NCBI GenBank assembly: GCA_001771505.1
Contig: MEUA01000005.1
Span: 10,808 to 74,807 of the forward strand
From: a candidate division WOR-1 bacterium RIFOXYB2_FULL_36_35
GTDB taxonomy: Bacteria > Margulisbacteria > WOR-1 > XYC2-FULL-46-14 > XYC2-FULL-37-10
DNA length: 64,000 nucleotides
Reading direction: 5' to 3'
Under the pieces are notes generated by a model that was not told where the DNA came from, did not search any database, and saw only the letters and a program-made list of their open reading frames with translations. Made by a program: the position numbers and the translations under genes. Positions 21,596 to 45,568 of the stretch are shown here, piece after piece; the first letter of the stretch is position 1, and each line of letters begins with the position of its first letter.

Positions 21596-21602
21596 TTATC
21601 TC

Positions 21603-28763: not shown

Positions 28764-29813
28764 TTACTCAATTACAAGATCCCAAGTTATCGGGGTTCCT
28801 TTCTTTGTATTTTTAGAAATTTTTTTACCCAATAAATCATTTATATGTTTTGGAGAAATTCCGCCAGCAGGTCTAATAGATTTTAAATTATCTAAAGTGA
28901 ATAGATCTCCTGCTTTCATATCATTTACAACATAAAGTGAACGCCTAAATCTCATTGTTTTTTTCTCTTCGGCAGTAGGGATATAATTAACCGTCCCCAA
29001 TGCTTGCCATGCACGTTCAGACTCAATCACTAAATCATGCATCTCTTGTGGCTCCATTGAAAAGGCTGAATCAATTCCTCCATCAACTCGTGATAACGTA
29101 AAGTGCTTCTCAATAACTGTTGCACCTAAAGCAACACTAGCAACAGAAACACCTAGGCCTAAAGTGTGATCAGATATTCCAACAGAACAATTAAATCTAG
29201 CCATCATGTCTGGAATTGTTAATAAATTAGAGCTAGATGGAATTGCAGGATAAGAACTTGTACATTTAAGAAGAACAATCTTGTCATTCCCTTCATTTTT
29301 ACAAGCATCAATAGCTTCTTGAATTTCTTCTATTGTTGCCATCCCTGTAGACATAATTATAGGCTTTCCTGTTGAAGCTATTTTTTTAATTAATGGAATA
29401 TCAACAATTTCAAAAGAAGCTATTTTATAACAAGGAACATTTAAAGATTCCAAAAAGTTAACTGCAGGTTCATCAAACGGAGTGCTAAACCCAATAATTC
29501 CTAATTCTTTACATTTATCAAAAATAGGCTTATGCCATTCCCATGGGGTATAAGCTTCTTTGTATAAATCGTAAAGTTTTTTTCCCTTCCACAGACTATT
29601 AGAGTCATTAATAATAAACCCTTCCGCATTTGAATCAAGTGTCATTAAATCTAACGAAAATGTTTGAAGTTTAAGCGCATCTACTTTACACTTTGCGGCT
29701 GCTTCAACAATATGCAAAGCTCTTTCAATCGACTGATTGTGATTGCCAGACATTTCAGCAATAATGAAAGGTTTAATTTTTTCCCCAATCTTTATATTAA
29801 TACGTTCTTTCAT
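28764..29813 (-). CDS. NeuB-family nonulosonic acid synthase (PseI/LegI/NeuB-like, PEP-dependent), copy 1
   Basis: PFIIAEMSGNHNQSIERALHIVEAAAKCKVDALKLQTF (NeuB N-terminal TIM-barrel motif) and a C-terminal SAF/antifreeze-like domain. Confidence 0.8.
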   Translation of the reverse strand: MKERINIKIGEKIKPFIIAEMSGNHNQSIERALHIVEAAAKCKVDALKLQTFSLDLMTLDSNAEGFIINDSNSLWKGKKLYDLYKEAYTPWEWHKPIFDKCKELGIIGFSTPFDEPAVNFLESLNVPCYKIASFEIVDIPLIKKIASTGKPIIMSTGMATIEEIQEAIDACKNEGNDKIVLLKCTSSYPAIPSSSNLLTIPDMMARFNCSVGISDHTLGLGVSVASVALGATVIEKHFTLSRVDGGIDSAFSMEPQEMHDLVIESERAWQALGTVNYIPTAEEKKTMRFRRSLYVVNDMKAGDLFTLDNLKSIRPAGGISPKHINDLLGKKISKNTKKGTPITWDLVIE

Positions 29814-30520
29814 AGATTAATGCTCCTCACTAGCTCAAAGGCTTCTGCATATGCCAAGCCAACTTCACACCCACGTTTTTCAGCAAGGATTTCAATCCCT
29901 TTAATTGATCTAGGATGTGGCCATTCTTTCAATTCATTTTTATAGGCTTTCATAGCGTCTATTTTTTTCTCAATAGTTTTAGAAATATCCACATAAACAT
30001 TTGGCTTAAATGTATTAGGCCAGCTCCACTCAGTTGAAGATAATGTTTCAAAACAGTATATTTGCTTCACCATTTCTCCTGCAATTGCTCTACAAGCGGT
30101 CAAAACAGCATTAAAGGTTATCTGATGATCTATATTCAAATCCTCCCCGTGATGAGTAAAAATGACATCGGGGATAAACTTGTTTTTTACATTTTCTATA
30201 ACTTTTACTAAATCTAAAAGTGGAACGGAATCAAAACGATTATCAGGAAAATTTAAAACAAAATTCTTTTTAACTTTTAATATCTTTGCCGCATCATTAA
30301 TATGATTTTTTAACTCTTTCATTTGTTCAATATCCATGGCCTTTTCTCTGTTTTCATATCTCGAAGTAATTCCTTCTCCTAAAATTAATATGGCAACGTC
30401 TATTCCTTTTTTCAGTAATTTTGAAATTGTTCCCCCACAACCTAAAACCTCATCATCAGGGTGTGCAGCTACAACTAAAACATTCTTCATATTAGAAAAC
30501 ATCATTATCCCCCAATTCAA
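29810..30520 (-). CDS. PIG-L/LmbE-family N-acetylglucosaminyl deacetylase-like protein
   Basis: VLVVAAHPDDEVLGCGG ... HQITF (a Zn-dependent PIG-L motif). Confidence 0.75.
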   Translation of the reverse strand: MNWGIMMFSNMKNVLVVAAHPDDEVLGCGGTISKLLKKGIDVAILILGEGITSRYENREKAMDIEQMKELKNHINDAAKILKVKKNFVLNFPDNRFDSVPLLDLVKVIENVKNKFIPDVIFTHHGEDLNIDHQITFNAVLTACRAIAGEMVKQIYCFETLSSTEWSWPNTFKPNVYVDISKTIEKKIDAMKAYKNELKEWPHPRSIKGIEILAEKRGCEVGLAYAEAFELVRSINL

Positions 30521-31343
30521 ATTTATAATTATTTACATTTTCTAGTAATTGCATATTTGTGTATAGAATAAATTCATTAAACAATATAGGAGAAAATCCC
30601 TTTGACCGGAGTTTTTCATTATTTTCTGAGTTTTTGAATGCCCATACATCAACAACACCATTAAATCCTTCCAATAAATTACAATCTGACAACTCAAGAA
30701 TCTGCTTTTTATTATTATATTCTTTCCAAATAATATAATTATATTCATCAATAATACTTTGATAATAAATTGTTTGAGGCTTAGAGTATCTCCATTTAAT
30801 AAAATCCAAATTCTTTTGTATCTTAAAATAAATATCTTTTTTAGATTCAATATATTTAAACTGATTAATATCTAATTTTTCATATCCTTCACCTGAAACA
30901 AAGCCACTTAATAATTCTAAGCCTCCATAGCTTTTCCACCCTATCCTCTTATGCCCTTTTACAGCTTTAGAATTAGGAACACCAATAACTAAAGGGAACT
31001 TAGAATCATTAAGAGAAAATTCTCCCATAGCTTGGAACAAACCTGTCCCTTGAAATCGAGGAATAACTCCCACGTTATTACATAAGGCGCCTTTTATAAT
31101 TACTCCATCAACTTTTATCAAAATAGGAAGCAATCCATACATAGCAACAGGTTCATCATTTTTGAAAGCTGCATACCATAAATTCGCCCCTATCGGACAG
31201 GAAGAGAACCAATCAATCAAATCTTTTTTAAATTCTCTGTTAAAAATCAACTTAAACAGAAGCAATATGTCTGAGCTTTTATTTAATTTTCCAAATTTCA
31301 TTTTTGATTTATCAAATAAAATAGGGTATTTGTTTTGATTCAT
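30492..31343 (-). CDS. putative acyl-CoA N-acyltransferase (GNAT-like) protein, 283 aa
   Basis: VGVIPRFQGTGLFQAMG resembles GNAT motif A. Otherwise unrecognised. Confidence 0.3.
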   Translation of the reverse strand: MNQNKYPILFDKSKMKFGKLNKSSDILLLFKLIFNREFKKDLIDWFSSCPIGANLWYAAFKNDEPVAMYGLLPILIKVDGVIIKGALCNNVGVIPRFQGTGLFQAMGEFSLNDSKFPLVIGVPNSKAVKGHKRIGWKSYGGLELLSGFVSGEGYEKLDINQFKYIESKKDIYFKIQKNLDFIKWRYSKPQTIYYQSIIDEYNYIIWKEYNNKKQILELSDCNLLEGFNGVVDVWAFKNSENNEKLRSKGFSPILFNEFILYTNMQLLENVNNYKFELGDNDVF

Positions 31344-31858
31344 AAATTTATCTCTCTTGATTTACGCATAAACTTCTTACAATTCATTGCCATTTTAACA
31401 AATGCAACTATTTCTCCATGTTTTACATCAACACAATTAAATAATTCAAAGAAACCAGCATTTCTAAATGATTTAATAGAAGCTAAATTACTACTTTTTA
31501 TCCTTGCAATAAAAATATCCACATTATTTTCTTCTAAAAATATTTCACAAGACAATTCAATCATCTGTCTTGCATACCCATTTCCTCTCATTTTTGGGAC
31601 TACATTAATATCAAATTCAGCAACATGATTATTTAATTTATCAAGTCTAACTATTCCAATTTTATTTTTTTCCCCATCTTCTGCAATATAAATAAATCTA
31701 TTAGGATTTTTCAATGAATCATTAAACCAAATCTTATGATCTTCATAAGATATTATCCCTGAGCAAAAATTAGCGTTTCTTGTTTTTTCGTCGTTTCGCC
31801 AAGAAAAAACATCATTACAATCTTCATCTAATACAGTTCTTAAATAAATTTTATTCAT
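31340..31858 (-). CDS. GNAT-family N-acetyltransferase (PseH-like aminosugar N-acetyltransferase)
   Basis: 172 aa. IGIVRLDKLNNHVAEFDINVVPKMRGNGYARQMIEL (GNAT motif A). It lies inside the pse-like gene set. Confidence 0.6.
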   Translation of the reverse strand: MNKIYLRTVLDEDCNDVFSWRNDEKTRNANFCSGIISYEDHKIWFNDSLKNPNRFIYIAEDGEKNKIGIVRLDKLNNHVAEFDINVVPKMRGNGYARQMIELSCEIFLEENNVDIFIARIKSSNLASIKSFRNAGFFELFNCVDVKHGEIVAFVKMAMNCKKFMRKSREINL

Positions 31859-32618
31859 AAATATTCTTCAAATTTCTGATATCTCCTACAAAATCATTTA
31901 AATTCTTCATTGATGATTTCAATGTTTCTATTGTTAGCATAGATCCATTTTGTATAAAAGACAAAGTAAATTTCATATCGAAGCTCCCCTCTCCGATATG
32001 CAAATGTTTATCATAAATTCCTTGAATATCTCCATCTGTTAAATGGTACATTGTAGGTTTTAAAGAAATAAAATTTTTAATGTAGTGGGAGCTATCAATA
32101 TTATGCGCATTTGCAGAACAGATAGCATGGCCAATATCCAAACAAAATCCAATTTGAACCTCTTTGATTAAAAACTCGATTTCTTCAGGTGTGGTTCCAT
32201 TGCAGATTAATCCATTATCTAAAGCATAATAAGGCTTATTCTCTATTAATATCCTAGAATCATTAATATATTTCAATTGACTAGCCGTTTCTTTAATATT
32301 TCCATCAATTCCAGGATGGAATATTATCCAATGAGCATTTAATTTATCTGCAAAATGCTGAGCTTCATGAGCTAATTCCATGTTTTTATAAAACTTATTT
32401 TTTTCAGCTAAATTAAGCCCATCTCTAAAATGAGGAGCATGAATAATAAATGGTATATTTAATTCCTGCCAAACTTTTATATAATTTTCATAAGAATCAG
32501 GAATTACATAAAGTTCAATGTAATCATATGTGCTATTCTTATAAAGCTTTATTGCTTCTTCTATATAATTATTATTCGTCGACCATAGTTTCAAACCAAA
32601 CTTAAATTTCTTCATCAT
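31851..32618 (-). CDS. xylose-isomerase-like TIM-barrel protein (sugar phosphate isomerase/epimerase family)
   Basis: IELYV ... IIHAPH ... IIFHPG ... LIENKP ... CLDIGH, a metal-binding pattern of the AP-endonuclease-2/xylose-isomerase TIM barrel. Confidence 0.45.
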   Translation of the reverse strand: MMKKFKFGLKLWSTNNNYIEEAIKLYKNSTYDYIELYVIPDSYENYIKVWQELNIPFIIHAPHFRDGLNLAEKNKFYKNMELAHEAQHFADKLNAHWIIFHPGIDGNIKETASQLKYINDSRILIENKPYYALDNGLICNGTTPEEIEFLIKEVQIGFCLDIGHAICSANAHNIDSSHYIKNFISLKPTMYHLTDGDIQGIYDKHLHIGEGSFDMKFTLSFIQNGSMLTIETLKSSMKNLNDFVGDIRNLKNIYE

Positions 32619-35122
32619 ATTGCTAGTCCCTTCTGAACTATATGTGAATTTAACATGGTAAGATGATCATGTTGTTTTAAAAACCTCAACACATCATTTA
32701 GTGTAAAATAATTATTTACTGGATAAATCCCATCATATATTTCCCTAATCAACTCAAAATCCTCTTGTGTATCTAACGTAAGCCTATATTTTGAATCGTC
32801 TCCATTTCCTATAAATTGTTTTATCTTGAATTTTTCTTCATTCTGATAAATATATGGAGTAACATGCTCTCGCTGGCAGTTCTCTTTGGCAAAATTAAAA
32901 GCTTTTTTAAGAGAAGAAAAATTCATGATTTCAACATCAAGGCCTCTTGGAAAAGTACGCTTTATGGTATTAGATAAATAATCTACGGATGGATCCTTTA
33001 AAAAGGTTGCTACCATGCTATCAATTATATCCGCATCTACAAAAGGACAATCTGAAGTAATCCGAATTATCACATCAAGATTGTTTTCTTTTGCTGCATA
33101 ATAGTATCTCGAAAGAACGTCTTCCTCGCTTCCTCTAAAATATTTCAGATTATTTGATTTAGCCAGAGAAACGATAAGATCATCTCTTGCATCAATAGTA
33201 GTTGCAATGATTATTTCATGGACATTTTTACAGCCTTTTAATCTGTCAATAATATGTTCAAGAACAGGTTTATTTTGAACAGGAAGCATAATTTTACCCG
33301 GCAATCTAGTAGATCCCATTCTTGCCTGAATTATTATTCCAACTTTTCTCTGATTTATATAACCATTAATTAAAAATTCTTGCAATAACTCTATGGAACG
33401 ATCATCAGGACATTCATCGTATTCTCTTAATAAGTAATAAGGAATATCTTTTAAAGGAGATACTTCACCCAAAATAATCTTATGAGTCATTTCAATTAAC
33501 TTATCGGGATCATCAAACACTAGTTTATCTTTAAAGATTTTAGAAAAAGGATGATTATAGTGTACTTGATCAAAATAAAGTCCTTCGACACCAGAAATAA
33601 TGGCAATTGTGGAAGAACTGGTCATACCCTGTGTAACAACAATATCTGAAATGCCTATTACCTTTACATAAGACCAGTCCTTTGGATTTAAGATATAAAC
33701 ATTATTGAGATTATTTAGCTGTGCTATTATTTTATCAAGTTTCTCTCTACAACCATCAGAAAAGCTATGGGTTTGAATTGGAACCTTAGGTTTTAACAAA
33801 ATTGTAAGATCATTATTCAATAAAGCCATTTTTAATGCTATTTCATAAAAAATGACAAAATGATCTTCTGTCATTTTGCATTCTATCCCAAATGACTCAT
33901 CAAAAAAACTAACTACTTTTCTTGATACGTCAATCCCTGCATCTGCAAGTATTTTATGCCTAAAAGCCCTTGATTCTTTAATATATCTTTTATTGAAAAA
34001 TCCTATAGGCAACAACATCTCCTCAGGGCCTTCAACGCCCTTTACATGCGCTTTTCCCCATAAAAAATATTTATCACATCCTAAGAAAGAAAGAACTGAT
34101 TTATTCAAATCAACAGATAAATCAGACCAGTGAAACAAATAATACTTAGATCCGTAATTCTGGCAAACAATAGACTCTGCAATATGACTAAAACTATAAA
34201 AAGAATATCCGAGTTCAGAAGTAATTTTATAATTAGAAAATATTTTTTCATATTGTAAAGCAGAAGCTTTGAAATGATAAAAAACACTGTAAAACAACGT
34301 ATAGTAGTTAGAATTTATTAAATTAATTAAAATTCTAACGCCAGAAAACACATATTTGGGCAAAACCCTAAAAATAAATTGTTTTAACCCCATTGGCAAC
34401 GAATTAAACACAAAATGTTCATAATCAGAGTTTATAGCATCATTATATCCGACCAACCTACATCCCTCCAAATAAATACCTCTTGAATAAAGCAATAAAT
34501 CTTCTTTTTTTATATTTTTATCATCTACAAAAAAATCATCTCCACAACAATGATCTATTCCTGTGTGCAAACCACTAACAGCTTCAGTCATAACCTTAAA
34601 TTTTTTAACTTTCAAAAAAAGTTTTATTCCGCGAAACAAACTAACACAAAATACAGAATAAACAATTATTAACAAATTAAGAAGTTTTATTACTGTTGAT
34701 GGTTGATTTTTCCATTTAATTGGCGGTATCGTTTTAAATTTAATTAAGTATTTCTCTGCTGCAAAACGATTTAGAGGATTATCTTCTAAGACTATAACAT
34801 TATTAATATTATTTTTATATGACATTTCATCTAAACACCTAAGAGCAATAGATAAATATTCAACTATCCATTTTTTCAGCAATGGATTAAAACGGTCAGT
34901 ATCAAATAATTTATTCATTGATTTTGTAAAATATGAATCTAATAAGGCATTTTTTTCAACAAACTCATTTGTCAATTCTACTAGATCTGAATAAATCCAA
35001 TTTAAATATTCAATTCTTCGTTTCCCATTAAAACTTCCCAACAAATTTACTTCTGCAAGCAAATCAATTTGAATGGCTTTCCTTATATTTCTAATTTTTC
35101 CTCTTATAGTTTCAAGCATCAA
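32615..35122 (-). CDS. bifunctional fusion: N-terminal ~600-aa GT-B-like domain + C-terminal CMP-nonulosonate cytidylyltransferase (PseF/NeuA-like)
   Basis: C-terminal VGIIIQARMGSTRLPGKIMLPV (cytidylyltransferase). Upstream of it, LLKPKVP...ISDIVVTQGMTSSSTIAIISGVEGLYFDQ (the GT-B donor half). Immediately downstream of the PseB/PseC homologs. Confidence 0.55.
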   Translation of the reverse strand: MMLETIRGKIRNIRKAIQIDLLAEVNLLGSFNGKRRIEYLNWIYSDLVELTNEFVEKNALLDSYFTKSMNKLFDTDRFNPLLKKWIVEYLSIALRCLDEMSYKNNINNVIVLEDNPLNRFAAEKYLIKFKTIPPIKWKNQPSTVIKLLNLLIIVYSVFCVSLFRGIKLFLKVKKFKVMTEAVSGLHTGIDHCCGDDFFVDDKNIKKEDLLLYSRGIYLEGCRLVGYNDAINSDYEHFVFNSLPMGLKQFIFRVLPKYVFSGVRILINLINSNYYTLFYSVFYHFKASALQYEKIFSNYKITSELGYSFYSFSHIAESIVCQNYGSKYYLFHWSDLSVDLNKSVLSFLGCDKYFLWGKAHVKGVEGPEEMLLPIGFFNKRYIKESRAFRHKILADAGIDVSRKVVSFFDESFGIECKMTEDHFVIFYEIALKMALLNNDLTILLKPKVPIQTHSFSDGCREKLDKIIAQLNNLNNVYILNPKDWSYVKVIGISDIVVTQGMTSSSTIAIISGVEGLYFDQVHYNHPFSKIFKDKLVFDDPDKLIEMTHKIILGEVSPLKDIPYYLLREYDECPDDRSIELLQEFLINGYINQRKVGIIIQARMGSTRLPGKIMLPVQNKPVLEHIIDRLKGCKNVHEIIIATTIDARDDLIVSLAKSNNLKYFRGSEEDVLSRYYYAAKENNLDVIIRITSDCPFVDADIIDSMVATFLKDPSVDYLSNTIKRTFPRGLDVEIMNFSSLKKAFNFAKENCQREHVTPYIYQNEEKFKIKQFIGNGDDSKYRLTLDTQEDFELIREIYDGIYPVNNYFTLNDVLRFLKQHDHLTMLNSHIVQKGLAI

Positions 35123-36288
35123 AATATCTCTCTTATTTTAAATTTTTCAACAATTTTTTTTGTAACTTTAACAACTCTTTTGATGTCACAATCAGACATT
35201 TTAGGATAAAGAGGCAAAGTTATCGAGCACTCATAATATTTTTCCGCATTAAGACAAAGTCCCTTTTTATAACCTATTTTTTTGTAATAAGGCTGATAAT
35301 ATACAGGAATATAATGGACATTTACGCAAATCCCATACTTGAGATACTCATTAAATATTTCTCTTCTAGTAGCGGATAATTTATCAAGATTAAATTTCAA
35401 AATATAAAGATGATGTACATGGTCAATATAAGGTTTAATGCTTAAAGGCTGAAGCTCTTCATATCTACAAAAAACCTTATCATACTCATTTGTTATTTGT
35501 TTTCTGCGTTTAATAAAAACTGAAAGTCTTTTAAATTGACTAATCCCCAAAGCACTTTGAATATCTGTCAATCTATAATTAAAACCTAGAGCCTGCATCT
35601 CATAAAACCATGGTTCTGGATTTATTTTTAATAAATTTGGATCTCTTATTATTCCGTGACTTCTGAACAATTTCAATTTTTTATAAAAATCTTTATTATT
35701 AGTTAATACCATTCCCCCTTCACCGGTGGTAATATGTTTTACAGCATGAAAGCTTAAAATCGTAAAATCAGCATATTTCCCTGAGCCAACAATTTCCCCT
35801 TTATATTTAGCCCCCAAAGCATGTGCAGCATCTTCAATAATTATAATATTTTTTCTATTTGCAATGCTTCGTATTTCTGACAAATCAGCAGGCTGTCCTG
35901 CAAAATCTATAGGTATAATTGCTTTAGTCTTTTTTGATATTTTTTTTTCTATCTCTTTTGGATTTATATTAATAGTATCTTCAAGCACATCAGCAAATAT
36001 AGGCTTAGCCCCACAATACAATATACAATTAGCAGAAGCAACAAAAGTAATCGGAGACGTTATAACTTCATCTCCCCTTTTGATACCTGCAGCTAAACAA
36101 GCAATATGAAGGGCAGATGTCCCGCTATTTACGGCTACAACATATTTTGCTCCGCAATGTTCAGCAACTATTTTTTCAAATTTTTCAATTAAAGGGCCTT
36201 GAGTCAAATAAGAAGACTCTAAAGCCAACTTAACAGCTTCAATATCTTGAGCATCTATCCATTGTGTTGCATAAGGAATTTTTTTCAC
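35119..36288 (-). CDS. pseC: DegT-family aminotransferase, PseC-like (UDP-4-keto-6-deoxy-sugar 4-aminotransferase)
   Basis: AVNSGTSALHIACLAAGI ... EDAAHALGA ... FHAVKHITTGEGG. Directly follows the PseB homolog. Symbol assigned from gene context only. Confidence 0.65.
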   Translation of the reverse strand: MKKIPYATQWIDAQDIEAVKLALESSYLTQGPLIEKFEKIVAEHCGAKYVVAVNSGTSALHIACLAAGIKRGDEVITSPITFVASANCILYCGAKPIFADVLEDTININPKEIEKKISKKTKAIIPIDFAGQPADLSEIRSIANRKNIIIIEDAAHALGAKYKGEIVGSGKYADFTILSFHAVKHITTGEGGMVLTNNKDFYKKLKLFRSHGIIRDPNLLKINPEPWFYEMQALGFNYRLTDIQSALGISQFKRLSVFIKRRKQITNEYDKVFCRYEELQPLSIKPYIDHVHHLYILKFNLDKLSATRREIFNEYLKYGICVNVHYIPVYYQPYYKKIGYKKGLCLNAEKYYECSITLPLYPKMSDCDIKRVVKVTKKIVEKFKIREIF

Positions 36289-37296: not shown

Positions 37297-39066
37297 TCAA
37301 TTTTTAATTAAACGCTCAAATTCTTCAATCCATTTCTCATCAGATTCTGATGATACACGTGCAAAATAATTGCAAAATTTTTTGCGCGCGGCTTGTCTTT
37401 TTGAATCATTCCACCAGGTTTCAACATCAATATAAATAGAATTAATAGCCATAGCCGCATCTTTCGGCGAATCATAAAGTATTCCTACATTACGCAATTC
37501 ATCAAAAATAACCCGTGCTTCAGATTTCAACTGATAAGTTTTCGCAAATGAAATTACTGGTTTATTTAAAGCCATTACTTCCATAAAAGAAGTAAAAAGA
37601 TGATCAAGCACAACAAGACGACAATTATTAATTCTTTCTAAAAATGGAACCGTCATATCTTCTAAAATTATTTCAGGGAACATATCTTTCAAGCGATCAG
37701 AACACCCCCAATCAAAATCAATAAAATATAAACGAACACGTAAGTTATGTTTCCTATTTGAATCAAGCATATCCACAAAGCTAAATTGTTCATTTATATA
37801 ATTTATAAAAGCATCACTATTGAAATATTGAAATCTAAAAAAATATCTGGGCATACTTGTTACCATAAAAAGAATATCTTCTTTTTTATTATTAGCGGAC
37901 ATTTCTTTTACACCTGCCATCTTATTGGCAAAAAAAGGTATGACTTTAGCAGCACAGTCCAATTGCTCCCAACCCCAAGAATAATATTGATCTGTTATTG
38001 CTAATTCATGCTTCTCAACTGCCATATAGTTATGAATTCCATATATTCCTCCATGTTGAGTGCCTATTAAAATAGTTTCTTTTTCAGAAGATATAGCGGC
38101 CAACTGCTTAAAATATTCATTAGAATACCAGGCGTTTGCACTAAATATCGCTTTCGGATTCACAGGATAATCTTTCTCGACTTCCTTTTTAAGCTTTGGA
38201 TAACCTTCAAGATAAATTAATGGCAAATCAAATGGAAGCATACCATTAAAAATCGGCTCAAATCCTTCCAAGTTGCAATCAAAAGTTTTTAATTTTTTCC
38301 GCATTTCCAGATCAATTAAAATTGATTTACAATCAACTTTCTTATCAACCAAAAGCCTAACATTCTCTCTTTCTTTTTCAAGAATTTTTTTCCCGAAATC
38401 AGAAGTAAAATATGGATTAAAGATAAGAAGTGTTTTTTTATTGACGAAAAATTCATGGAAAAACTTTTTTATAAATTGATAAAGGTAAGATTTAAAAGAT
38501 CTTTTATCCTCTTTTTCAGATTCAATGTATTTTTGGGTTACTTTATAACTTTTTTTTTGGGATTTTTCACCCAATAAATCAAGAATTTTTGTATATAATT
38601 GAAGATTATAGGAATCATCACTAATTAATTTAATAAATTCATTGTAATCTTGAGGAATAACAAAAGATTCTTCAGATAATCCAATAGTTACAAGATTTGG
38701 ATATTTATTTAAGGCTCCCTTTAAAGAAAGGTAACGGTCATAAAGCACATGTACATAATGAAAAAGCCATGGGCCGATTAGAATCCTCCAATATTTTTTA
38801 CCAAAATTCACCCCATGAATAGTATTTAATTTATCAGCTAGGATTGGAAGCATACACTCATAAAAATCATCAACATATTTAAAAGCAGCATAAAGTCGCT
38901 CTTTATCTTCCCAAGGACTTGGCAAAACAACCCCTTTAAGAGGCTCCCAAAAGGATCGACGACGATACAATCGGCATCTCTCCCCCAAAAACACAATTGG
39001 TTTTGAAGTATCCCAAAATTCTTCAATTGCTGTAGTTGCTAAAAATTTTTTTTCTTCTGAATTCAT
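37297..39066 (-). CDS. 589-aa putative transferase of unknown specificity (GT-B-like C-terminal half)
   Basis: WRILIGPWLFHYV near the N-terminus. The C-terminal CRLVVLDHLFTSFMEVMALNKPVISF is GT-B donor-half-like. No confident family assignment. Confidence 0.3.
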   Translation of the reverse strand: MNSEEKKFLATTAIEEFWDTSKPIVFLGERCRLYRRRSFWEPLKGVVLPSPWEDKERLYAAFKYVDDFYECMLPILADKLNTIHGVNFGKKYWRILIGPWLFHYVHVLYDRYLSLKGALNKYPNLVTIGLSEESFVIPQDYNEFIKLISDDSYNLQLYTKILDLLGEKSQKKSYKVTQKYIESEKEDKRSFKSYLYQFIKKFFHEFFVNKKTLLIFNPYFTSDFGKKILEKERENVRLLVDKKVDCKSILIDLEMRKKLKTFDCNLEGFEPIFNGMLPFDLPLIYLEGYPKLKKEVEKDYPVNPKAIFSANAWYSNEYFKQLAAISSEKETILIGTQHGGIYGIHNYMAVEKHELAITDQYYSWGWEQLDCAAKVIPFFANKMAGVKEMSANNKKEDILFMVTSMPRYFFRFQYFNSDAFINYINEQFSFVDMLDSNRKHNLRVRLYFIDFDWGCSDRLKDMFPEIILEDMTVPFLERINNCRLVVLDHLFTSFMEVMALNKPVISFAKTYQLKSEARVIFDELRNVGILYDSPKDAAMAINSIYIDVETWWNDSKRQAARKKFCNYFARVSSESDEKWIEEFERLIKN

Positions 39067-39074
39067 TATATTAT

Positions 39075-39824
39075 CTAATTAATAATTAACTGTATTAATT
39101 TCCAATTCAATATTACGTTTCCGTTTATTTCTAAACGATCTCCTGATTTGGTTGAAACTGTATATGTTTGAAGATCATTCATATTATTGGATTCAGGCAG
39201 ATCAAAATCCAACTTCATATTAATTGAATTTATTTCTTTTACATCTATAGATTCACAATATTTTTTAAACTTAGGAAAAGAATAAGTGTTTAAATAGGTA
39301 TAATTATCAGCCGTCCCTTTAGATGCATTTGAGTAAATTTTAGTTATAAAATCAACATCCCCATCATAAAAAAGTGAAGTTATATAAATTTTATTTTTTG
39401 TTGCTTTAATCAATTCAGTAAGAATAGTTTTATAATAAGGCAACCAAGATAATGTTTTGTAATTAATTGTTATATCAAATGCCTTATGATATTTATCGGA
39501 AAGCTTCATAATGTCATAAACCTCAAAGTCAATATTTTTATTATTAGTAAAATGCTTTTTCCCTTGATTAATTAGCTCGTCAACATAATCAACACCTGTA
39601 TAAAATTGATTAGTGTCAAATTCATTAAGAAAATGTATTAATCTTCCATATCCACAACATGCATCCAAAATTTTTTGATTTTTCTTCTCGAAATCTTCCT
39701 TAAGCAGAGAGAATAAATAATCCATTTGTTTCTCTTTTCTTAAAGGACAAAAATCATCTTTGTTGTCATACAAAGTTGCTTTAATTACATCTTTATAAAT
39801 CAGATTTTCAGATCTTTCGTTCAT
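39075..39824 (-). CDS. class I SAM-dependent methyltransferase
   Basis: ILDACCGYGRLIHFL motif I. Confidence 0.6.
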   Translation of the reverse strand: MNERSENLIYKDVIKATLYDNKDDFCPLRKEKQMDYLFSLLKEDFEKKNQKILDACCGYGRLIHFLNEFDTNQFYTGVDYVDELINQGKKHFTNNKNIDFEVYDIMKLSDKYHKAFDITINYKTLSWLPYYKTILTELIKATKNKIYITSLFYDGDVDFITKIYSNASKGTADNYTYLNTYSFPKFKKYCESIDVKEINSINMKLDFDLPESNNMNDLQTYTVSTKSGDRLEINGNVILNWKLIQLIIN

Positions 39825-39839
39825 ATTAAATACTAAACA

Positions 39840-41138
39840 TCACTTTGCGATACATTTTTTAATTGCCTCAGCTATATCATAAACATCATTAATACTATGA
39901 GGGAAACGAACGTGTTCATTGATCAACATTTCATTAAAATAAAGCCTTTCCGCATTTGGACATGTTCCAGAAGAATAATGCATAAAACATTCTTTATTTT
40001 CTGTGGCACTAAAAGGATAGCCATTCTTAAATAAATGCTTATTTTGATAAACCGGTTGAAGGTATAATGGCTTTGTATACCCTTGATAAAAGTTGATTCC
40101 TTCAGCATTAACTACTTTCACAAACTCACTTCGAGAAACTTTGGCAACTTCTGGCAAGAATCTTACTGGATAAACATAATATGTGCTCTTGCAATCTTTT
40201 CGACCTTGAAAAGGAGATAAAAAATCAATCTCTTTTAATTCATTAGTCAAATACTCGACCATTTCTAATCTTTTATCATTTAAATCATCAAGTTTTTTAA
40301 GCTGTTCTTTAGCGATTGCAGCTTGAATTTCAGTTAGACGATAATTGAATCCAGCAATATTTGTAATCTTTGCATATTGAGCCGGTCCAACAACCGCTTC
40401 ACCATGGTTTCTAATTAAGGCTAATCTGTATCTTAATTCTTCACTGTTTGTTACACAAACCCCTCCTTCACCAGTTTGAATGGTCTTATTAACATTCAGG
40501 CTAAATACACCAATATCCCCTATCGTTCCCACAAATTTATCTTTGTATTTTGCTCCGTGAGCTTGGGCGCAATCCTCTATTACGCGAAAATCATTTTCTT
40601 TTGCTATATTCATTATTTTATCCATATTCGCAGGTATACCAAATTGATGAACCACAAGAATCGCTTTTGTTCTCTTAGTTATAAGCTTTTCTATAGACTT
40701 AGGATCAAGAGATCCTGTATCTAATTCAACATCAGCAAAAACAGGAATTGCACCATAAATCATCGGAGCCATTGCACAGGCAGACATAGTATATGGAGAA
40801 ACAATAACTTCATCACCATAGCCAAGTTCTAAGGCTCCGACAGCTGCATAGAGTCCAGACGTTGCACTGTTAACTGCTACTGCGTAACCACACTTATAAT
40901 AATCACACCACATTTTTTCCAAAGATTGAACTTCCGTACCACCGTAAAAAGAAAAAGGAGGATCAGGAACATGTGATCCCTCAAAAAGTGATAAATAACC
41001 ACTATCTAACACTCTTAAAACTGCTTGTTTTTCTTCATTCCCAACCGTAAAGTTATCCATCCATGGTTTGGTTCTAACAGGCGTACCCCCATTAATTGCT
41101 AACTCTTCATTTTTTAAATCTAGATGCATATTTTTCAC
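39840..41138 (-). CDS. DegT/DnrJ/EryC1-family sugar aminotransferase
   Basis: AVNSATSGLYAAVGALEL ... EDCAQAHGA ... FSLNVNKTIQTGEGG. Confidence 0.75.
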   Translation of the reverse strand: MKNMHLDLKNEELAINGGTPVRTKPWMDNFTVGNEEKQAVLRVLDSGYLSLFEGSHVPDPPFSFYGGTEVQSLEKMWCDYYKCGYAVAVNSATSGLYAAVGALELGYGDEVIVSPYTMSACAMAPMIYGAIPVFADVELDTGSLDPKSIEKLITKRTKAILVVHQFGIPANMDKIMNIAKENDFRVIEDCAQAHGAKYKDKFVGTIGDIGVFSLNVNKTIQTGEGGVCVTNSEELRYRLALIRNHGEAVVGPAQYAKITNIAGFNYRLTEIQAAIAKEQLKKLDDLNDKRLEMVEYLTNELKEIDFLSPFQGRKDCKSTYYVYPVRFLPEVAKVSRSEFVKVVNAEGINFYQGYTKPLYLQPVYQNKHLFKNGYPFSATENKECFMHYSSGTCPNAERLYFNEMLINEHVRFPHSINDVYDIAEAIKKCIAK

Positions 41139-42096
41139 CTTTCCAAATAATATTCATCACTGTCTTTGCTTCATCGATAGAATAATCCTTGATCAAATTA
41201 GCTTTTTTCAATTTCAAATACCTGCTTATTACATTTATAGCATTTTGGATGCAAGATGAATTCTTTTTACCTAAGTTTAACCGTCGTGGAATCAACTCAC
41301 TTTCCATTTTAGAATTTGTAAATTTTTCATCAAAAATATACCTATTCTCGAAATTTTCAATTTTCAATCTTGCTTTCTCAAACTTAAAATCAAAATCAAA
41401 TAGCTGATAGTACTTTTCATCAAAAGCATGCAAATATATTTTTGCCTTGTTTTTATCAAATAATAGTTCTACGTCTAAAGTTAAATCATTTTGATATTGG
41501 GTAGTCATATATCCATAAATTTTTCTGATAAAAAGATTTTCATTAAACAAAAACAAAAGTGTATCTATTACATGTACGCCATTATGTTTCCACCCTCCAT
41601 AATAAAAGACATCAGCTCTTATCAACTTTCCGAAAACATTCCTTTGAATCATTTTTTTTAAATTGATATATTTTGGATTAAAACGTCTTGAATGATTTAT
41701 TAAAATAGCAACATTTTTACGTTTAGACAAAAGTTTAATTTTATTAAATTCGTTACTATTAGAACAAATAGGCTTTTCAACAAAAATCACTGAAGGAGTA
41801 ACCTTATTTATCAGCATCCTATTTATAATTTCAAAATGAGTATTATCAGGAGTACATACGGAAACTACATCAGGTCGATGTTTATTGATGAATGAAATAT
41901 AATCATTTCCATAACTATCACAATTATAAATTTTTGCCAGCTTTTGGGCTTTATCTAAATCTGTATCAATAAAAGCCACAACGTCAATGTTTGGCACATT
42001 ATCATAAGCACGGGCATGACTAGATACAGAAGAATCTAAGTCACTATCAAAATATCCAGCAATCTTGCCACAACCAATTATTATTGCTTTAAACAT
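41107..42096 (-). CDS. Gfo/Idh/MocA-family NAD(P)-dependent oxidoreductase
   Basis: MFKAIIIGCGKIAGYF Rossmann N-terminus ... EKP motif. Confidence 0.65.
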   Translation of the reverse strand: MFKAIIIGCGKIAGYFDSDLDSSVSSHARAYDNVPNIDVVAFIDTDLDKAQKLAKIYNCDSYGNDYISFINKHRPDVVSVCTPDNTHFEIINRMLINKVTPSVIFVEKPICSNSNEFNKIKLLSKRKNVAILINHSRRFNPKYINLKKMIQRNVFGKLIRADVFYYGGWKHNGVHVIDTLLFLFNENLFIRKIYGYMTTQYQNDLTLDVELLFDKNKAKIYLHAFDEKYYQLFDFDFKFEKARLKIENFENRYIFDEKFTNSKMESELIPRRLNLGKKNSSCIQNAINVISRYLKLKKANLIKDYSIDEAKTVMNIIWKGEKYASRFKK

Positions 42097-42859
42097 TTTC
42101 TCTAAACCTCTTCCATCTTCTCACTACTTTTTGATTTATTTTCTTCAATGCCTCATTCTGATCTAAATAATCCAAAATTTCAGCTAAAGAAAAATAATCC
42201 TTTCCTATACTGTTAAAATGTTTAAATATCCTAGATATAAGTTCAAAATCTTCACACGTATCGACTTCCAAATAAATATCTGGATGATAATAATGAGAAG
42301 GGGCTTCCAAATTACAAATTCTATATTTATGCTTATTTTGCGTAATGTGTATACTAACGTGCTCCCTTAATGGATCATTTCTTAAAACAAATTCATCGGC
42401 TTTTATTAATGCTTTTCCATTATATACTATTACTTCTTGCCCAGGAGGGTAAGTTGTTTTTAGTGAATTTGATACAAAATCATACACATTTTTATATTTT
42501 AGATAATAACCAATGAATTCATCAACGATTTGCGGATCTGGAAGAGGAGAATCCCCAAAAAACTCAACATGTACATCTACTTTAAATTTTTTTATTAAAG
42601 AAGCAATTCTATTTAAAACATCATTTTCGCTACCTCGGAAATATTTAATGTTATGATTATAACAAAGACTAACAATTTCATCATCGCTTGAACTAGTAGT
42701 TGTAGCAACTACTATATCATCTAATAATCTAGACTTTTTTATTCTCTCTATTTGCTGCAAAAGCATGGGTTTACCGGAAATTTCTTTTAAGACTTTTCCT
42801 GGCAAACGAGTCGAACCCATCCTTGCTTGAATAGAACCAATTATTCTTAATTTTTTCAA
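42089..42859 (-). CDS. NeuA/PseF/LegF-family CMP-nonulosonate cytidylyltransferase
   Basis: LRIIGSIQARMGSTRLPGKVL. Confidence 0.75.
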   Translation of the reverse strand: MKKLRIIGSIQARMGSTRLPGKVLKEISGKPMLLQQIERIKKSRLLDDIVVATTTSSSDDEIVSLCYNHNIKYFRGSENDVLNRIASLIKKFKVDVHVEFFGDSPLPDPQIVDEFIGYYLKYKNVYDFVSNSLKTTYPPGQEVIVYNGKALIKADEFVLRNDPLREHVSIHITQNKHKYRICNLEAPSHYYHPDIYLEVDTCEDFELISRIFKHFNSIGKDYFSLAEILDYLDQNEALKKINQKVVRRWKRFRENV

Positions 42860-43878
42860 TCTAAATATCCTTTTACAAAGTCAACAATTCTTTCTGTAGA
42901 CCCTTTAAATTTTTCTGCAAAGTTAGATTTGTCGAATTTTATTCCCTTTTCAAATATTTCATTTAAAGATTGTTTATCTTGGACAAGAATTGTAGCCCCT
43001 ATCCTATTTCCTATAAAACCTTTTTTATCATTAGGACGATAACTTATAACAACATCCCTAAGGACTGCGGCCTCCATAAGCAACATTGACCCCATTCCTA
43101 TAAAGATATCAGAATATATTATCAATGGATTTAAATCTATTCCGTAAAGTATTGATACATTTTTCCTCTTATATTTATCATACTTATCCATTTTTTCTGA
43201 AGGATGCAGTTTTATTAAGAGGTGTTCTTTTTCTCCTATTAGGTCAAGGATATCTTCCAATACTTGGTATTCATCAAAACCTTGGTAATAACTACTGTCC
43301 ATAGGAAAATCTTTTGCGTATTCTTCTGAAATAAATGTTATTATTTTTTTGTCAGCTAAATTCAAATTCTTCAGCCACTGGTCTTTTCCAATAATATTTG
43401 TTGCTTTTGTAACCTTATTTTCTAAAACCGGATTGCCTATTGCATAGATGATATTTCCATCCAAGCCTTCTTTTTTTGCTTCATCTCTGGCATATTCATC
43501 GTTTACTAATATAAAATTTGGCAAAACTAAAGCATTTTTTAGTAAAAATCTTTCTTTATACCATGACCAATGATCTATTATAGAAATAACATTAATATTT
43601 TTTTCTATTCCAAATTTAATAAAAGCTTTATCGATAGAATTTCCCCAACTTGTGCCGGTAATAATGAGTTTTATGGGTATTTCTTTAAAATTGGCTTCTA
43701 CAAACTTACCATATTCTTCTTGCGTACTAAAATCGATAACAGTACTTTTTATATTATTTACATCAAATATTTTTTGAGCAAAAGAAGAAGCAACACAGAT
43801 ATAAGGTTCATTTAAAACCTTTATAATTTCGCTTAAATAAGCTGCTGGCCCTGCATCCTTAGTTGAGAAAATTATCAC
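42856..43878 (-). CDS. 340-aa GT-B-like protein (possible PseG-type UDP-sugar hydrolase or glycosyl/glycerophospho-transferase)
   Basis: C-terminal SDIFIGMGSMLLMEAAVLRDVVIS, a GT-B donor-half pattern. It sits between a methyltransferase and a cytidylyltransferase. Confidence 0.3.
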   Translation of the reverse strand: MIIFSTKDAGPAAYLSEIIKVLNEPYICVASSFAQKIFDVNNIKSTVIDFSTQEEYGKFVEANFKEIPIKLIITGTSWGNSIDKAFIKFGIEKNINVISIIDHWSWYKERFLLKNALVLPNFILVNDEYARDEAKKEGLDGNIIYAIGNPVLENKVTKATNIIGKDQWLKNLNLADKKIITFISEEYAKDFPMDSSYYQGFDEYQVLEDILDLIGEKEHLLIKLHPSEKMDKYDKYKRKNVSILYGIDLNPLIIYSDIFIGMGSMLLMEAAVLRDVVISYRPNDKKGFIGNRIGATILVQDKQSLNEIFEKGIKFDKSNFAEKFKGSTERIVDFVKGYLD

Positions 43879-43879
43879 T

Positions 43880-44485
43880 TTATTTACGTTTGCTCCTTGC
43901 TAGTATCAATATGTTCTCATTGTTAAGTAATATTTCATGTTCAATTATATAATTATCTTTTACTTCATTTATCAGCTCATTTCGGCTCCTCACATAGCCA
44001 ATTGGGTTTTGCGGCAAAAACAAAGATATATATATTTTTTTTGTTTTTTTACGCGTTTTCCTCAAAATATCTTTCCAGTTTTTAATATAAGAAAGTATTT
44101 CCATCATTACAATTAAATCCCATTTTCTTTTTGTTTTAACAACTTCATCTACTGTTAATTGCAAAAATTCAATGTCAGGGTGTTTTTGCTTTGTCTTCAT
44201 TATCGCTGTTTTTGAAATATCAATTCCAACAACTTTATTTCTACCTCTTTTTAAAAATGAAGTAAATGTTCCTTTCCCACAACCAACATCAAGAATAGGA
44301 TTAAATTCATATTTATTGTTATTAATAATTAATAACGAAATTTGCTTATCTAAATGATTCATTTTCTCCTGAAACCAACTATCGTATCCAAATATATCTT
44401 CATTTTTATACATTTCTTCAAACTTGCCAATAAATTTTCTCTTTTTTGAATCAAATATATATTTATGATAAGGTTGACTATTCAT
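43880..44485 (-). CDS. class I SAM-dependent methyltransferase
   Basis: ILDVGCGKGTFTSFL motif I. Confidence 0.65.
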   Translation of the reverse strand: MNSQPYHKYIFDSKKRKFIGKFEEMYKNEDIFGYDSWFQEKMNHLDKQISLLIINNNKYEFNPILDVGCGKGTFTSFLKRGRNKVVGIDISKTAIMKTKQKHPDIEFLQLTVDEVVKTKRKWDLIVMMEILSYIKNWKDILRKTRKKTKKIYISLFLPQNPIGYVRSRNELINEVKDNYIIEHEILLNNENILILARSKRK

Positions 44486-44488
44486 AGG

Positions 44489-45568
44489 TTATTTACCTCC
44501 AAGCATTCCCCATGTAATTACTGTATCCTCATTGATATCAAGTTTAACTTTTTTATTCAATGCATCTACTAAGAACTTAGGTGAAATACCCGTTCCTGGC
44601 CTTTTACATACTATCATCTCTCTAGTTAAGACTGTCCCTTTTTTTATATCTCTGCTTGCAACCAAACTTCGACGTGCATAACTAACAGCATCATGTTCAG
44701 CAGCAACTGGGATTTTATCCGCTCTTCCTTTTGATAATTCTGCATTTCTTATATCTTGGACCATTCGCTTCAATTCAGGAGGATCAACTGACATAAAATG
44801 ATCTGTCGACATAGAAAGAGATTTATCAATAGTAAAATGCTTTTCAATAACTTTTGCACCAAGCATTACGGATAATGACGGGACTAATGTACCAAGCGAA
44901 TGATCTGATAATCCAATTGCAATATCAGGAAATTCTTTTTGTAAGGTTTGCATCATATTAAGATTTGCATCTTCATATTTTGTAGGATAACTCAAAATAC
45001 AATGCAAAATAATTATTTGTTTATTTCCTGTCTCTTCGATAATTTCAACAGCTTCTTTAACTTCATTAAGAGTTGATGCCCCTGTAGAAAGAATTATTGA
45101 TCTATTTTTTTTTGCAACATATCTTAAAAATTCATGATAAGTTATATCTGCAGAAGCTATTTTATACGCAGGAACATTCAATTCCTCCAGAAAATCAACA
45201 TTTTCTTTATCGAAAGGAGTTGACAAAAATATAATATTTAATTCTTTTGCTAATTTAACTAAGTTAAAATAAACCGATTTAGGAAGAGAATCAAGTTGCT
45301 TAAATTCATCTATTTGAAAACCTTTAGGCCTTGCATTGTTTAAAAACTCATCCATATTATCAACATAGTATTTTGGGGCTGTCTTTGTAACTAAGTTCTC
45401 AGCACTATAACTTTGAAATTTAATTGCATCTGCGCCTGATTCAGCAGCTTTGATTATAAGGTTTTCAGCTAATATTGGATCTGAGTTAGCATTTGCTCCA
45501 GCCTCAGCAATAATAAAACAAGGATCATTAGGACCAACCCATTTATTCCCGATATTAATTCTTCTCAT
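44489..45568 (-). CDS. NeuB-family nonulosonic acid synthase, copy 2
   Basis: CFIIAEAGANANSDPILAENLIIKAAESGADAIKFQSY, plus a C-terminal SAF domain. Confidence 0.8.
   Translation of the reverse strand: MRRINIGNKWVGPNDPCFIIAEAGANANSDPILAENLIIKAAESGADAIKFQSYSAENLVTKTAPKYYVDNMDEFLNNARPKGFQIDEFKQLDSLPKSVYFNLVKLAKELNIIFLSTPFDKENVDFLEELNVPAYKIASADITYHEFLRYVAKKNRSIILSTGASTLNEVKEAVEIIEETGNKQIIILHCILSYPTKYEDANLNMMQTLQKEFPDIAIGLSDHSLGTLVPSLSVMLGAKVIEKHFTIDKSLSMSTDHFMSVDPPELKRMVQDIRNAELSKGRADKIPVAAEHDAVSYARRSLVASRDIKKGTVLTREMIVCKRPGTGISPKFLVDALNKKVKLDINEDTVITWGMLGGK

Follow-up and report, generated by a model that had tools for sequence, protein, structure and literature searches.

The 64-kb stretch of DNA analysed here (the window) is part of a metagenome-assembled genome of the uncultured candidate division WOR-1 (Saganbacteria), obtained from aquifer/groundwater metagenomes. 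Look-up of exact sequences assigns its proteins (OGC08518.1 and OGC08507.1, for instance) to WOR-1 genomes of this kind, and a Leptospira origin, at which matches to the LIC12162 and PFTS families had hinted, was rejected on this ground. It contains genes for the biosynthesis of nonulosonic acids (NulOs). Judged by curated cutoffs, one gene set is a pseudaminic acid (Pse) cassette with PseB, PseC and PseI among its members. This cassette is devoid of PseG, and the gene in the exact PseG position codes for an endonuclease-IV-like TIM barrel protein. The best reading of sequence, structure models and gene context is that the TIM barrel is a predicted non-orthologous replacement of PseG. A second synthase, referred to as NeuB2, is assigned by sequence to an uncharacterised clade of the NeuB family, and the locus likely gives rise to two distinct NulOs.

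The window has a G+C content of ~31%, and nearly every gene is on the minus strand. The region under study is the middle of a ~60-kb single-strand surface polysaccharide locus, which is continuous within the window from MurE (60028-61467) downstream. For every gene named in a previous model-made reading of the sequence (the first-pass annotation), an intact minus-strand open reading frame (ORF) was confirmed at the coordinates given, and the named domains were recovered as Pfam/NCBIfam matches. With E-values from 1e-83 to 1e-162, chance is excluded. The genes form three functional blocks: block 1 (39066 to 27692), block 2 (49554 to 43880) and block 3 (43878 to 39075). They had been described as one operon, which is plausible for the whole array. 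They share one orientation and either overlap or leave short gaps, but a scan for consensus promoters and terminators, aimed at delimiting operons, gave matches at or below shuffle expectation.

The pseudaminic acid cassette and its TIM barrel protein

Block 1 consists of the following genes, listed from 39066 downwards:

37297-39066, minus strand: LIC12162-family transferase, 589 aa (TIGR04331, 526 bits)
36289-37266, minus strand: PseB, UDP-GlcNAc inverting 4,6-dehydratase (TIGR03589, 537 bits; cutoff 408)
35119-36288, minus strand: PseC, pyridoxal phosphate (PLP) aminotransferase (TIGR03588, 494 bits; cutoff 423)
32615-35122, minus strand: bifunctional 835-aa protein with a TagF-like GT-B domain (PFTS family, residues 1-590) and a cytidylyltransferase domain (residues 596-796; CTP_transf_3, 115 bits)
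31851-32618, minus strand: endonuclease-IV-like TIM barrel (AP_endonuc_2), 255 aa, in the PseG slot; putative UDP-sugar hydrolase
31340-31858, minus strand: PseH-like GNAT N-acetyltransferase, 172 aa (TIGR03585, 44 bits; under the cutoff of 93)
30492-31343, minus strand: second GNAT-like protein, 283 aa (Acetyltransf_9, 27 bits; one homolog in the fetched loci)
29810-30520, minus strand: PIG-L family de-N-acetylase, 236 aa, accessory (Pfam domain; in 7 of 81 PseI loci)
28764-29813, minus strand: PseI, pseudaminic acid synthase (TIGR03586, 493 bits; cutoff 340)
27692-28702, minus strand: methyltransferase, 336 aa, downstream of PseI (homologs in 6 of 81 PseI loci)

PseB, PseC and PseI pass the equivalog cutoffs, which bears out the first-pass claim that a Pse gene set is present. 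A neighbour-joining tree of synthases was computed (59 sequences, 343 columns, 100 bootstraps, no characterised LegI included). In this tree, PseI from the window is in a clade with 100% bootstrap support, which also contains the crystallised PseI from C. jejuni (8H2C). On these grounds it is regarded as a bona fide PseI, beside equally bona fide PseB and PseC. The 172-aa GNAT is encoded at the expected PseH position; it is homologous to the GNAT half of PseG-GNAT proteins encoded beside PseI and to that of TIM-GNAT fusions (see below). The CTP_transf_3 domain type found in the 835-aa protein also fills the PseF slot in canonical Pse loci (L093, L094).

No PseG was identified in the window with NCBIfam models. 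In addition, a hidden Markov model (HMM) was built from 57 PseG sequences that adjoin PseI relatives, and was limited to the PseG columns (many PseG proteins carry a fused PseH GNAT). It found nothing among the window ORFs or six-frame segments (best E = 0.098, 3.5 bits, with HMMER filters off). The first-pass annotation was thus correct in noting that a separate PseG is missing.

The distribution of the TIM barrel was analysed in two sets of loci. One comprises 81 metagenomic loci gathered through PseI homologs, among them 32 with complete PseB, PseC and PseI. The other comprises seven contexts gathered through homologs of the TIM barrel or of the fusion protein (TIM-sampled set). In the 32 complete loci, which are the unbiased sample, PseG without TIM barrel is found 30 times, the TIM barrel without PseG once, neither of them once, and both never. 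Four of the seven TIM-sampled contexts (L089, L171, L172 and L174) are clusters of the type PseB-PseC-...-TIM-(GNAT)-synthase without PseG. One more (L176) codes for PseB, a DegT aminotransferase, a cytidylyltransferase and a TIM-GNAT fusion; it was left uncounted because the contig ends before any synthase. The gene order is PseB-PseC-fusion-PseG-synthase in L088 (Omnitrophota) and PseB-PseC-fusion-TIM-GNAT-synthase in L089, L091 and the window. In the examined loci, the TIM barrel gene is in the exact position of PseG and is never found together with it.

The same correspondence is seen in domain fusions. TIM-GNAT fusions of ~400-420 aa (P0225, P0242, P0313 and others; L171, 8001-9230; L176, 8001-9233) mirror the PseG-GNAT fusions of ~500 aa: they have the same PseH-like GNAT as C-terminal half, and the N-to-C order is that of PseG-PseH fusions. 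About a third of the 150 best representatives of the TIM family have fusion length. This compact, conserved family comprises 257 clusters (50% identity) at E <= 1e-30 among 1.84 billion representatives.

The AlphaFold 2 (AF2) model of the TIM barrel has a pLDDT (predicted local distance difference test) of 94.7, and its nearest structures (Foldseek) are MJ1311, TTHB071 and Endonuclease IV (Endo IV, Nfo). The metal ligands of E. coli Nfo (H69, H109, E145, D179, H182, H216, D229, H231 and E261) all align to residues that are invariant in 42-43 of 43 TIM family members. The window protein thus has the fold and the nine tri-metal ligands of Nfo, but shares only ~15% of its sequence, is encoded in a context of sugar biosynthesis rather than DNA repair, and has relatives that are often fused to a GNAT. 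As five of the seven TIM-sampled contexts are Pse-type clusters and GNAT fusions are common, the context argues against a role in DNA repair. Pse intermediates are 6-deoxy sugars with no 6- or 9-phosphate to remove, so that the role of a 9-phosphate phosphatase would not apply in a Pse cassette. The most economical mechanism would be hydrolysis of the UDP-sugar at the phosphate.

The following pathway is proposed for block 1. PseB and PseC would convert UDP-GlcNAc into UDP-4-amino-4,6-dideoxy-L-AltNAc, which would be N-acetylated by the PseH-like GNAT. In PseG's stead, the TIM barrel would free 2,4-diacetamido-2,4,6-trideoxy-L-altrose from UDP, with attack at the phosphate and not at the anomeric carbon. 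PseI would join the freed sugar to phosphoenolpyruvate (PEP), and the CMP-sugar would be made by the C-terminal cytidylyltransferase domain of the 835-aa protein. Transfer to the glycan would be carried out by the fused TagF-like GT-B domain and/or by the LIC12162-family protein. The PIG-L protein, the second GNAT and the methyltransferase may remodel N-acyl or O-substituents, the second GNAT (30492-31343) possibly being an alternative N-acyl transferase.

NeuB2, its cassette and the accessory module

Block 2, the cassette around NeuB2, consists of the following genes:

48583-49554, minus strand: short DegT aminotransferase, 323 aa, first gene of the cassette (Pfam DegT, 217 bits)
47647-48573, minus strand: extended short-chain dehydrogenase/reductase (SDR), RmlB/GalE/LegB-like, 308 aa (STDW in place of the STDE dehydratase motif)
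46292-47686, minus strand: CBS-pair + SDR fusion, epimerase/reductase-like, 464 aa (STCS, YxxxK)
45555-46289, minus strand: small family 2 glycosyltransferase (GT2), 244 aa (overlaps the NeuB2 start by 14 nt)
44489-45568, minus strand: NeuB2, NeuB+SAF nonulosonic acid synthase (NeuB_NnaB, 335 bits, cutoff 400; PseI model, 292 bits, cutoff 340)
43880-44485, minus strand: class I S-adenosylmethionine (SAM) methyltransferase, 201 aa (domain match)

As the first-pass annotation had stated, the locus codes for two NeuB-family synthases. Both are intact and full length (NeuB, 278 and 293 bits; SAF, 46 and 43 bits), and neither is a pseudogene. The catalytic and metal-binding residues of N. meningitidis NeuB (E25, K53, K129, Y186, S213, H215, E234, H236 and R314) are present in both. 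The single change is E134D in NeuB2, which is common to 35 of the 59 aligned homologs. E134D was considered as a marker of phosphorylated substrates, but this was ruled out: Asp is found at this position in 176 of 213 aligned synthases from many contexts.

The two synthases share 36% sequence identity and belong to different clades. NeuB2 is in a separate clade with 89% bootstrap support, the members of which are mainly from DPANN archaea, bacteria of the candidate phyla radiation (CPR) and metagenomes. This clade is apart from N. meningitidis NeuB, from B. subtilis SpsE, and from synthases with Leg-type (legionaminic acid) neighbourhoods, i.e. those from Clostridium, from methanogens and from the Leg set of Omnitrophota L088. 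The closest PDB match of NeuB2 is SpsE (39.5% identity, 194 bits). In species-representative genomes, none of its relatives exceeds 49% identity; relatives with 54-64% identity are found in metagenomes.

The neighbourhood of NeuB2 is conserved in metagenomes. L086, L087, L002 and the P0019 contig share a short/LegC-like DegT, an ortholog of the 47647-48573 SDR, in some cases the CBS-SDR, a GT2 directly before the synthase, and a cytidylyltransferase. Orthologs of the SDR are encoded beside NeuB2 relatives in L086 and L087 (309-410 bits), an ortholog of the CBS-SDR is part of the L087 cassette (469 bits), and the adjacency of small GT2 and synthase is kept in L002, L086, L087 and the P0019 contig. 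The short DegT has the PLP lysine and the EDxAHAxGA motif (as aligned with PseC, WbpE and LegC-like proteins), and a 337-aa DegT is found at the same position on the P0019 contig. Because relatives' contexts share a short/LegC-like DegT, the cassette begins at the 323-aa DegT. The second gene set had been proposed to start at 47686; the genes reported for it exist, but the start is further upstream, the DegT (48583-49554) and the SDR (47647-48573) having to be included.

The cassette has no protein above the LegB or LegC cutoffs, no NeuC/LegG-type enzyme, no PseG, no dedicated N-acetyltransferase and no RmlB-type TDE pair. Block 2 would make a second, different NulO, which may be Leg-like or new. 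The conserved small GT2, for which the closest PDB match is a 228-aa glycosyltransferase (6p61, 90 bits), is a candidate for the enzyme that frees the hexose. Its gene is translationally coupled to that of NeuB2.

Block 3 is located between the other two and consists of the following genes:

42856-43878, minus strand: DUF354-like small GT-B protein, 340 aa (relatives match Glyphos_transf, TagF-like)
42089-42859, minus strand: cytidylyltransferase (CTP_transf_3), 256 aa (domain match)
41107-42096, minus strand: Gfo/Idh/MocA oxidoreductase, 329 aa (domain match)
39840-41138, minus strand: long DegT aminotransferase, 432 aa, partner of the Gfo/Idh/MocA protein (domain match)
39075-39824, minus strand: class I SAM methyltransferase, 249 aa (domain match)

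This block is a portable accessory module. The pair of Gfo/Idh/MocA protein and long DegT is found in 10 of the 81 PseI-sampled loci, usually directly after PseI and with a DUF354-like gene, and none of these ten loci has a second synthase within 10 kb. The Gfo/Idh/MocA gene follows PseI in the single-synthase loci L119, L120, L128, L143 and L172, and a Beckwithbacteria locus has the same arrangement of the module after PseI. For orthologs of the long DegT, bit scores are 290-382 in the vicinity of PseI loci and 343-357 in L003 and L004, where module genes also adjoin synthases of the NeuB2 clade. Because the same genes follow PseI in single-synthase loci, the module does not discriminate between Leg and Pse. 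Its cytidylyltransferase may activate the NeuB2 product.

The trio of Gfo/Idh/MocA protein, long DegT (430-450 aa) and DUF354/TagF-like protein, often with a cytidylyltransferase, was observed right after PseI in the single-synthase Pse loci L094, L115, L119, L120, L126, L128, L143, L155 and L172. The DUF354-like protein (42856-43878) has no sequence match in PDB; its relatives match Pfam Glyphos_transf (TagF-type) above cutoff, while the Epimerase_2 match is not convincing. A role as an equivalent of NeuC/LegG was considered and is not supported: there is no PDB match, the relatives are of the Glyphos_transf type, and the protein accompanies PseI loci that already have a PseG.

Alternative explanations

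We estimate a probability of about 55% for the explanation as a whole, i.e. the three blocks as described with the TIM barrel as PseG replacement. The first-pass annotation had raised the possibility that the PIG-L enzyme or the GT-B domain fused within 32615-35122 substitutes for PseG; the TIM barrel would then have an unrelated role. PseG itself is a GT-B-fold hydrolase, a PseF-PseG fusion exists in H. pylori, and the assignment of a GT-B fold to the N-terminal domain of the fusion protein was correct (AF2, pLDDT 90). By structure, however, this domain is nearest to the polymerases TagF, TarL and Bcs3 and is unlike PseG, and the PseG HMM gives no match to the fusion protein. In Omnitrophota L088, the gene for an orthologous fusion of 820 aa precedes one for a separate PseG, and the PIG-L protein occurs together with PseG in L093. 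Since each of them co-occurs with PseG elsewhere, the GT-B domain and the PIG-L protein are not regarded as PseG replacements. PIG-L enzymes, moreover, are metal-dependent de-N-acetylases and not glycosyl hydrolases. We consider this proposal very improbable. A more serious competitor, though still an unlikely one, is that the TIM barrel has an accessory role as a phosphatase, epimerase or tailoring enzyme, with PseG being encoded elsewhere in the genome or being dispensable. A related Leptospira fusion has been read as a phosphatase (PMC3438082), and the nearest solved structure of the TIM barrel is annotated as D-tagatose-3-epimerase-like. Only 64 kb of the genome are visible. Two TIM homologs are encoded outside of NulO loci, and one complete Pse locus (L158) has neither gene. 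An accessory role is disfavoured by the strict mutual exclusion of TIM barrel and PseG in the examined loci, by the exact PseG position, and by the TIM-GNAT fusions, which mirror the PseG-GNAT fusions. The full Endo IV tri-metal ligand set favours phosphoester chemistry over sugar epimerisation, and the Pse precursors, being 6-deoxy sugars, carry no 6- or 9-phosphate.

The second gene set (47686 to 39840) had been likened to Leg or Campylobacter ptm-type pathways. In this model, CBS-SDR, SDR, 432-aa DegT, Gfo/Idh/MocA protein, NeuB2 and the second cytidylyltransferase would produce CMP-Leg or a close derivative. NeuB2 indeed scores higher with the NeuB/LegI-type model than with the PseI model (335 versus 292 bits), and its closest solved relative, B. 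subtilis SpsE, is genetically required for Leg synthesis (PMC7439481). Several homologs with 54-57% identity are annotated by JGI as N,N'-diacetyllegionaminate synthase, and the classical Leg-type contexts of relatives with 41-45% identity (methanogens, Clostridium) contain a dehydratase, an aminotransferase, a hexapeptide acetyltransferase and a cytidylyltransferase. Nevertheless, NeuB2 is under every curated cutoff, and its 89% clade is separate from the Leg-context synthases and SpsE. For LegB (TIGR04180, cutoff 475), the best scores in the window are 121 bits (47647-48573) and 96 bits (46292-47686), neither protein having the RmlB-type TDE pair. For LegC (TIGR04181, cutoff 420), the 432-aa DegT scores 196 bits and the 323-aa DegT 131 bits. 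No ORF of the window matches Epimerase_2 or NeuC, and the cassette has no NeuC/LegG-type epimerase. Unlike in PtmE, the CBS pair is joined to an SDR instead of an NTP-transferase, and a CBS-nucleotidyltransferase was not found. As to a NeuD-type LegH, the lone hexapeptide acetyltransferase (50661-51236) belongs to a WbpA/B/D/E-like set (see below) and not to the cassette. The Gfo/Idh/MocA protein and the 432-aa DegT had been counted as Leg evidence, but together with the DUF354-like protein they follow PseI in single-synthase Pse loci (at least 10 of 81), and the DUF354-like family matches TagF-type Glyphos_transf and not, convincingly, Epimerase_2. The Leg/ptm-type label is thus not upheld, and we consider a Leg pathway rather unlikely. 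Least probable of all is that the two synthases are redundant, either by a recent duplication or as isozymes for one sugar. They share the NeuB+SAF architecture and the catalytic residues; this is opposed by the 36% identity, by their placement in different well-supported clades, as had been asked for in the first-pass annotation, and by the distinct conserved neighbourhood that each synthase has in other organisms.

The following points weigh against the three-block explanation with the TIM barrel as PseG replacement. TIM-positive clusters with a synthase are few (six, including the window), and most were found via homologs of the TIM barrel or of the fusion protein, which biases the exclusivity statistic in that part. 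PseG could be encoded elsewhere in the genome. L158 has neither PseG nor the TIM barrel, which leaves room for a third solution or for a gene at a distance. The synthases of two TIM contexts (L089, L174) are outside the strict PseI clade. The TIM homologs in L170 and L173 are outside any NulO context, so the family may have other roles, or a partner cluster may be located elsewhere in these genomes. PseH was assigned by position and domain (44 bits, with a cutoff of 93), and so was PseF, for which there is no equivalog match to TIGR03584. The NeuB2 cassette has no recognisable sugar-releasing enzyme, no dedicated N-acetyltransferase and no canonical dehydratase motif. The synthase tree is distance-based, does not resolve the deep nodes and contains no characterised LegI. 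Finally, all protein functions given here are predictions from sequence and structure models.

The two TIM homologs mentioned (L170, 8001-8756; L173, 8001-8768) have 52-57% identity. Insertion sequence (IS) elements surround one of them, while the other adjoins genes for a ROK kinase and a PD-(D/E)XK protein.

Candidate transferases, neighbouring genes and known systems

The 835-aa protein (32615-35122) is a candidate CMP-Pse synthetase fused to a CMP-sugar transferase. That its TagF-like GT-B domain would use a cytidine nucleotide donor is suggested by its association with a cytidylyltransferase, to which it is fused here; in other loci it is often a free-standing protein of ~590 aa encoded next to one. 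TagF, TarL and Bcs3 are CDP- or CMP-dependent GT-B polymerases; the window domain differs from them in sequence (7-10% identity) and in being fused to a CMP-sugar-type cytidylyltransferase. The LIC12162-family protein (37297-39066) is, like the fusion protein, a candidate CMP-Pse transferase. All nine LIC12162 homologs in the fetched loci are within PseI loci, and several start directly after PseI. Comparison of the LIC12162 family with the PFTS/TagF-like domain (hhalign) revealed a weak link (probability 79%, E = 1.6e-5). By BLASTP, there is no pairwise similarity among the N-terminal domain of the 835-aa protein, the LIC12162-family protein and the protein encoded at 19033-20865; homologs of the latter are absent from the fetched loci.

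Three cytidylyltransferases had been reported for the region between 28764 and 45568. Only two such domains are encoded there; the third is encoded outside this range:

20858-21595, minus strand: third cytidylyltransferase, KdsB-like (CTP_transf_3, 143 bits; TIGR00466, 160 bits, cutoff 155)

The latter is part of a third ulosonic-type module (19033-27681), which codes for an ABC exporter, an HMGL-like protein (with a weakly MptE-like C-terminal half), an LdpA-like 4Fe-4S protein, a HAD phosphatase, an HpcH/HpaI aldolase, the KdsB-like cytidylyltransferase and a TIGR04326/LIC13510-like protein. In Omnitrophota L088, the Pse cassette is followed by a syntenic ABC-HpaI-HMGL-4Fe4S-HAD block. The possible product of the module is a third CMP-activated keto-deoxy acid, formed via an aldolase.

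Beyond these modules, the polysaccharide locus codes for a Wza-like exporter, a Wzz-like protein, a Wzy_C protein, an ABC exporter and many GT2 and GT4 glycosyltransferases. Further genes code for a B12-radical SAM enzyme, a WbuX/WbuZ/HisH amidotransferase trio and a WbpA/B/D/E-like set. The last of these (WbpA/WbpB/WbpD/WbpE-like, 49567-53534: nucleotide-sugar dehydrogenase, Gfo/Idh/MocA protein, hexapeptide acetyltransferase, aminotransferase) immediately precedes the NeuB2 cassette and would produce a 2,3-diacetamido-2,3-dideoxy-uronic acid. The trio WbuX/WbuZ(HisF-like)/HisH and the B12-radical SAM enzyme are encoded at 11049-15051. The trio is also found beside PseI in several loci (L089, L091, L105, L115) and suggests an acetamidino-modified pseudaminic acid. 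A LegC-like aminotransferase is encoded at 6770-7882, 37 kb from NeuB2; with 382 bits it is under the TIGR04181 cutoff of 420, and it is the best match in the window to aminotransferases from classical Leg loci. No family was matched significantly by three ORFs of 521, 457 and 247 aa with which the locus begins on its upstream side (54804-57739 and 63203-63946); there are only weak hints at sulfatases or methyltransferases.

Two observations concern synthases from other genomes. In Omnitrophota L088 (Gorgyraea atricola), a canonical Leg-type set (1-6847) with PglD-like acetyltransferase, NeuB, Epimerase_2, CBS-nucleotidyltransferase and cytidylyltransferase is directly followed by a Pse-type set (6879-13900) with the 820-aa fusion and PseG. 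L088 thereby gives another, independent case of NulO gene sets in tandem. In Methanosarcinales (L013, 9992-11713 and 12566-15193; L023, 10016-11716), long NeuB-family ORFs (567-876 aa) are found, without the TIM family; their length suggests synthase fusions.

Compared to the Pse pathway of C. jejuni and H. pylori (PseB-PseC-PseH-PseG-PseI-PseF), the window has orthologs of PseB, PseC and PseI, a GNAT at the PseH position and a CTP_transf_3 protein at the PseF position. It differs in having no PseG but an Endo-IV-like TIM barrel in this slot, and in its cytidylyltransferase, which resembles SpsF and KdsB, is no TIGR03584 PseF and carries a fused TagF-like GT-B domain. The PIG-L protein, a second GNAT and methyltransferases are additions. 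The sps Leg pathway of B. subtilis (SpsM/C/D/G/E/F; Dubois et al. 2020, PMC7439481) has in SpsE the nearest solved relative of NeuB2, and its SpsF-type cytidylyltransferases are similar. In contrast to it, the NeuB2 cassette is devoid of an SpsM/PglF-type dehydratase, the SpsD acetyltransferase and the SpsG hydrolase, and NeuB2 is outside the SpsE clade.

In Leptospira interrogans, several NulO synthases, aminotransferases and CMP-NulO synthetases are encoded in one locus (Ricaldi et al. 2012, PMC3438082). An endonuclease-like domain that is fused to a NulO synthase was interpreted as a phosphatase in the Neu5Ac route, the clusters being of Leg/Neu type (PMC3438082). The window resembles this system as a multi-NulO locus and by an AP_endonuc_2-type domain tied to NulO biosynthesis; the LIC12162, PFTS and LIC13510 families (Leptospira O-antigen gene names) are found here, too. 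However, the TIM barrel in the window is free-standing (and fused to a GNAT in relatives) and is encoded inside a PseG-less Pse cassette. Multi-NulO loci are thus already known, and two NulOs per locus are not new in kind. The departures from known systems are the PseG-less Pse cassette with an Endo-IV-like enzyme, the fusion of cytidylyltransferase and TagF-like protein, and the uncharacterised NeuB2/GT2 cassette. Among the papers searched, none describes a TIM barrel or Endo-IV-like enzyme that replaces PseG in PseG-less Pse clusters.

In its broadest form, the claim would be that Endo-IV-like tri-metal TIM barrels are a new class of non-orthologous nucleotide-sugar hydrolases, which take the place of PseG in Saganbacteria, Omnitrophota, CPR, Planctomycetota and other groups and use phosphoester instead of glycosyl-transfer chemistry, and that the NeuB2 cassette makes a structurally new NulO. 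We put this forward tentatively and consider it somewhat less likely than not.

Pseudaminic acid is a bacterial sugar with a link to virulence, and the six steps of its biosynthesis are regarded as a canonical pathway and a drug target. If true, a widespread PseG-free variant would alter the recognition of Pse pathways in genomes, since rules that rely on PseG would call such clusters incomplete. It would also represent new chemistry for the release of sugars from nucleotides, and the endonuclease-like domain that is fused to a Leptospira NulO synthase could be reinterpreted. The LIC12162, PFTS/TagF-like and DUF354/TagF-like families, all three poorly understood, are nominated as the missing CMP-nonulosonate transferases for polysaccharides. 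The NeuB2 clade, with its conserved GT2 partner, is frequent among DPANN archaea and CPR bacteria, organisms whose surface chemistry has barely been explored.

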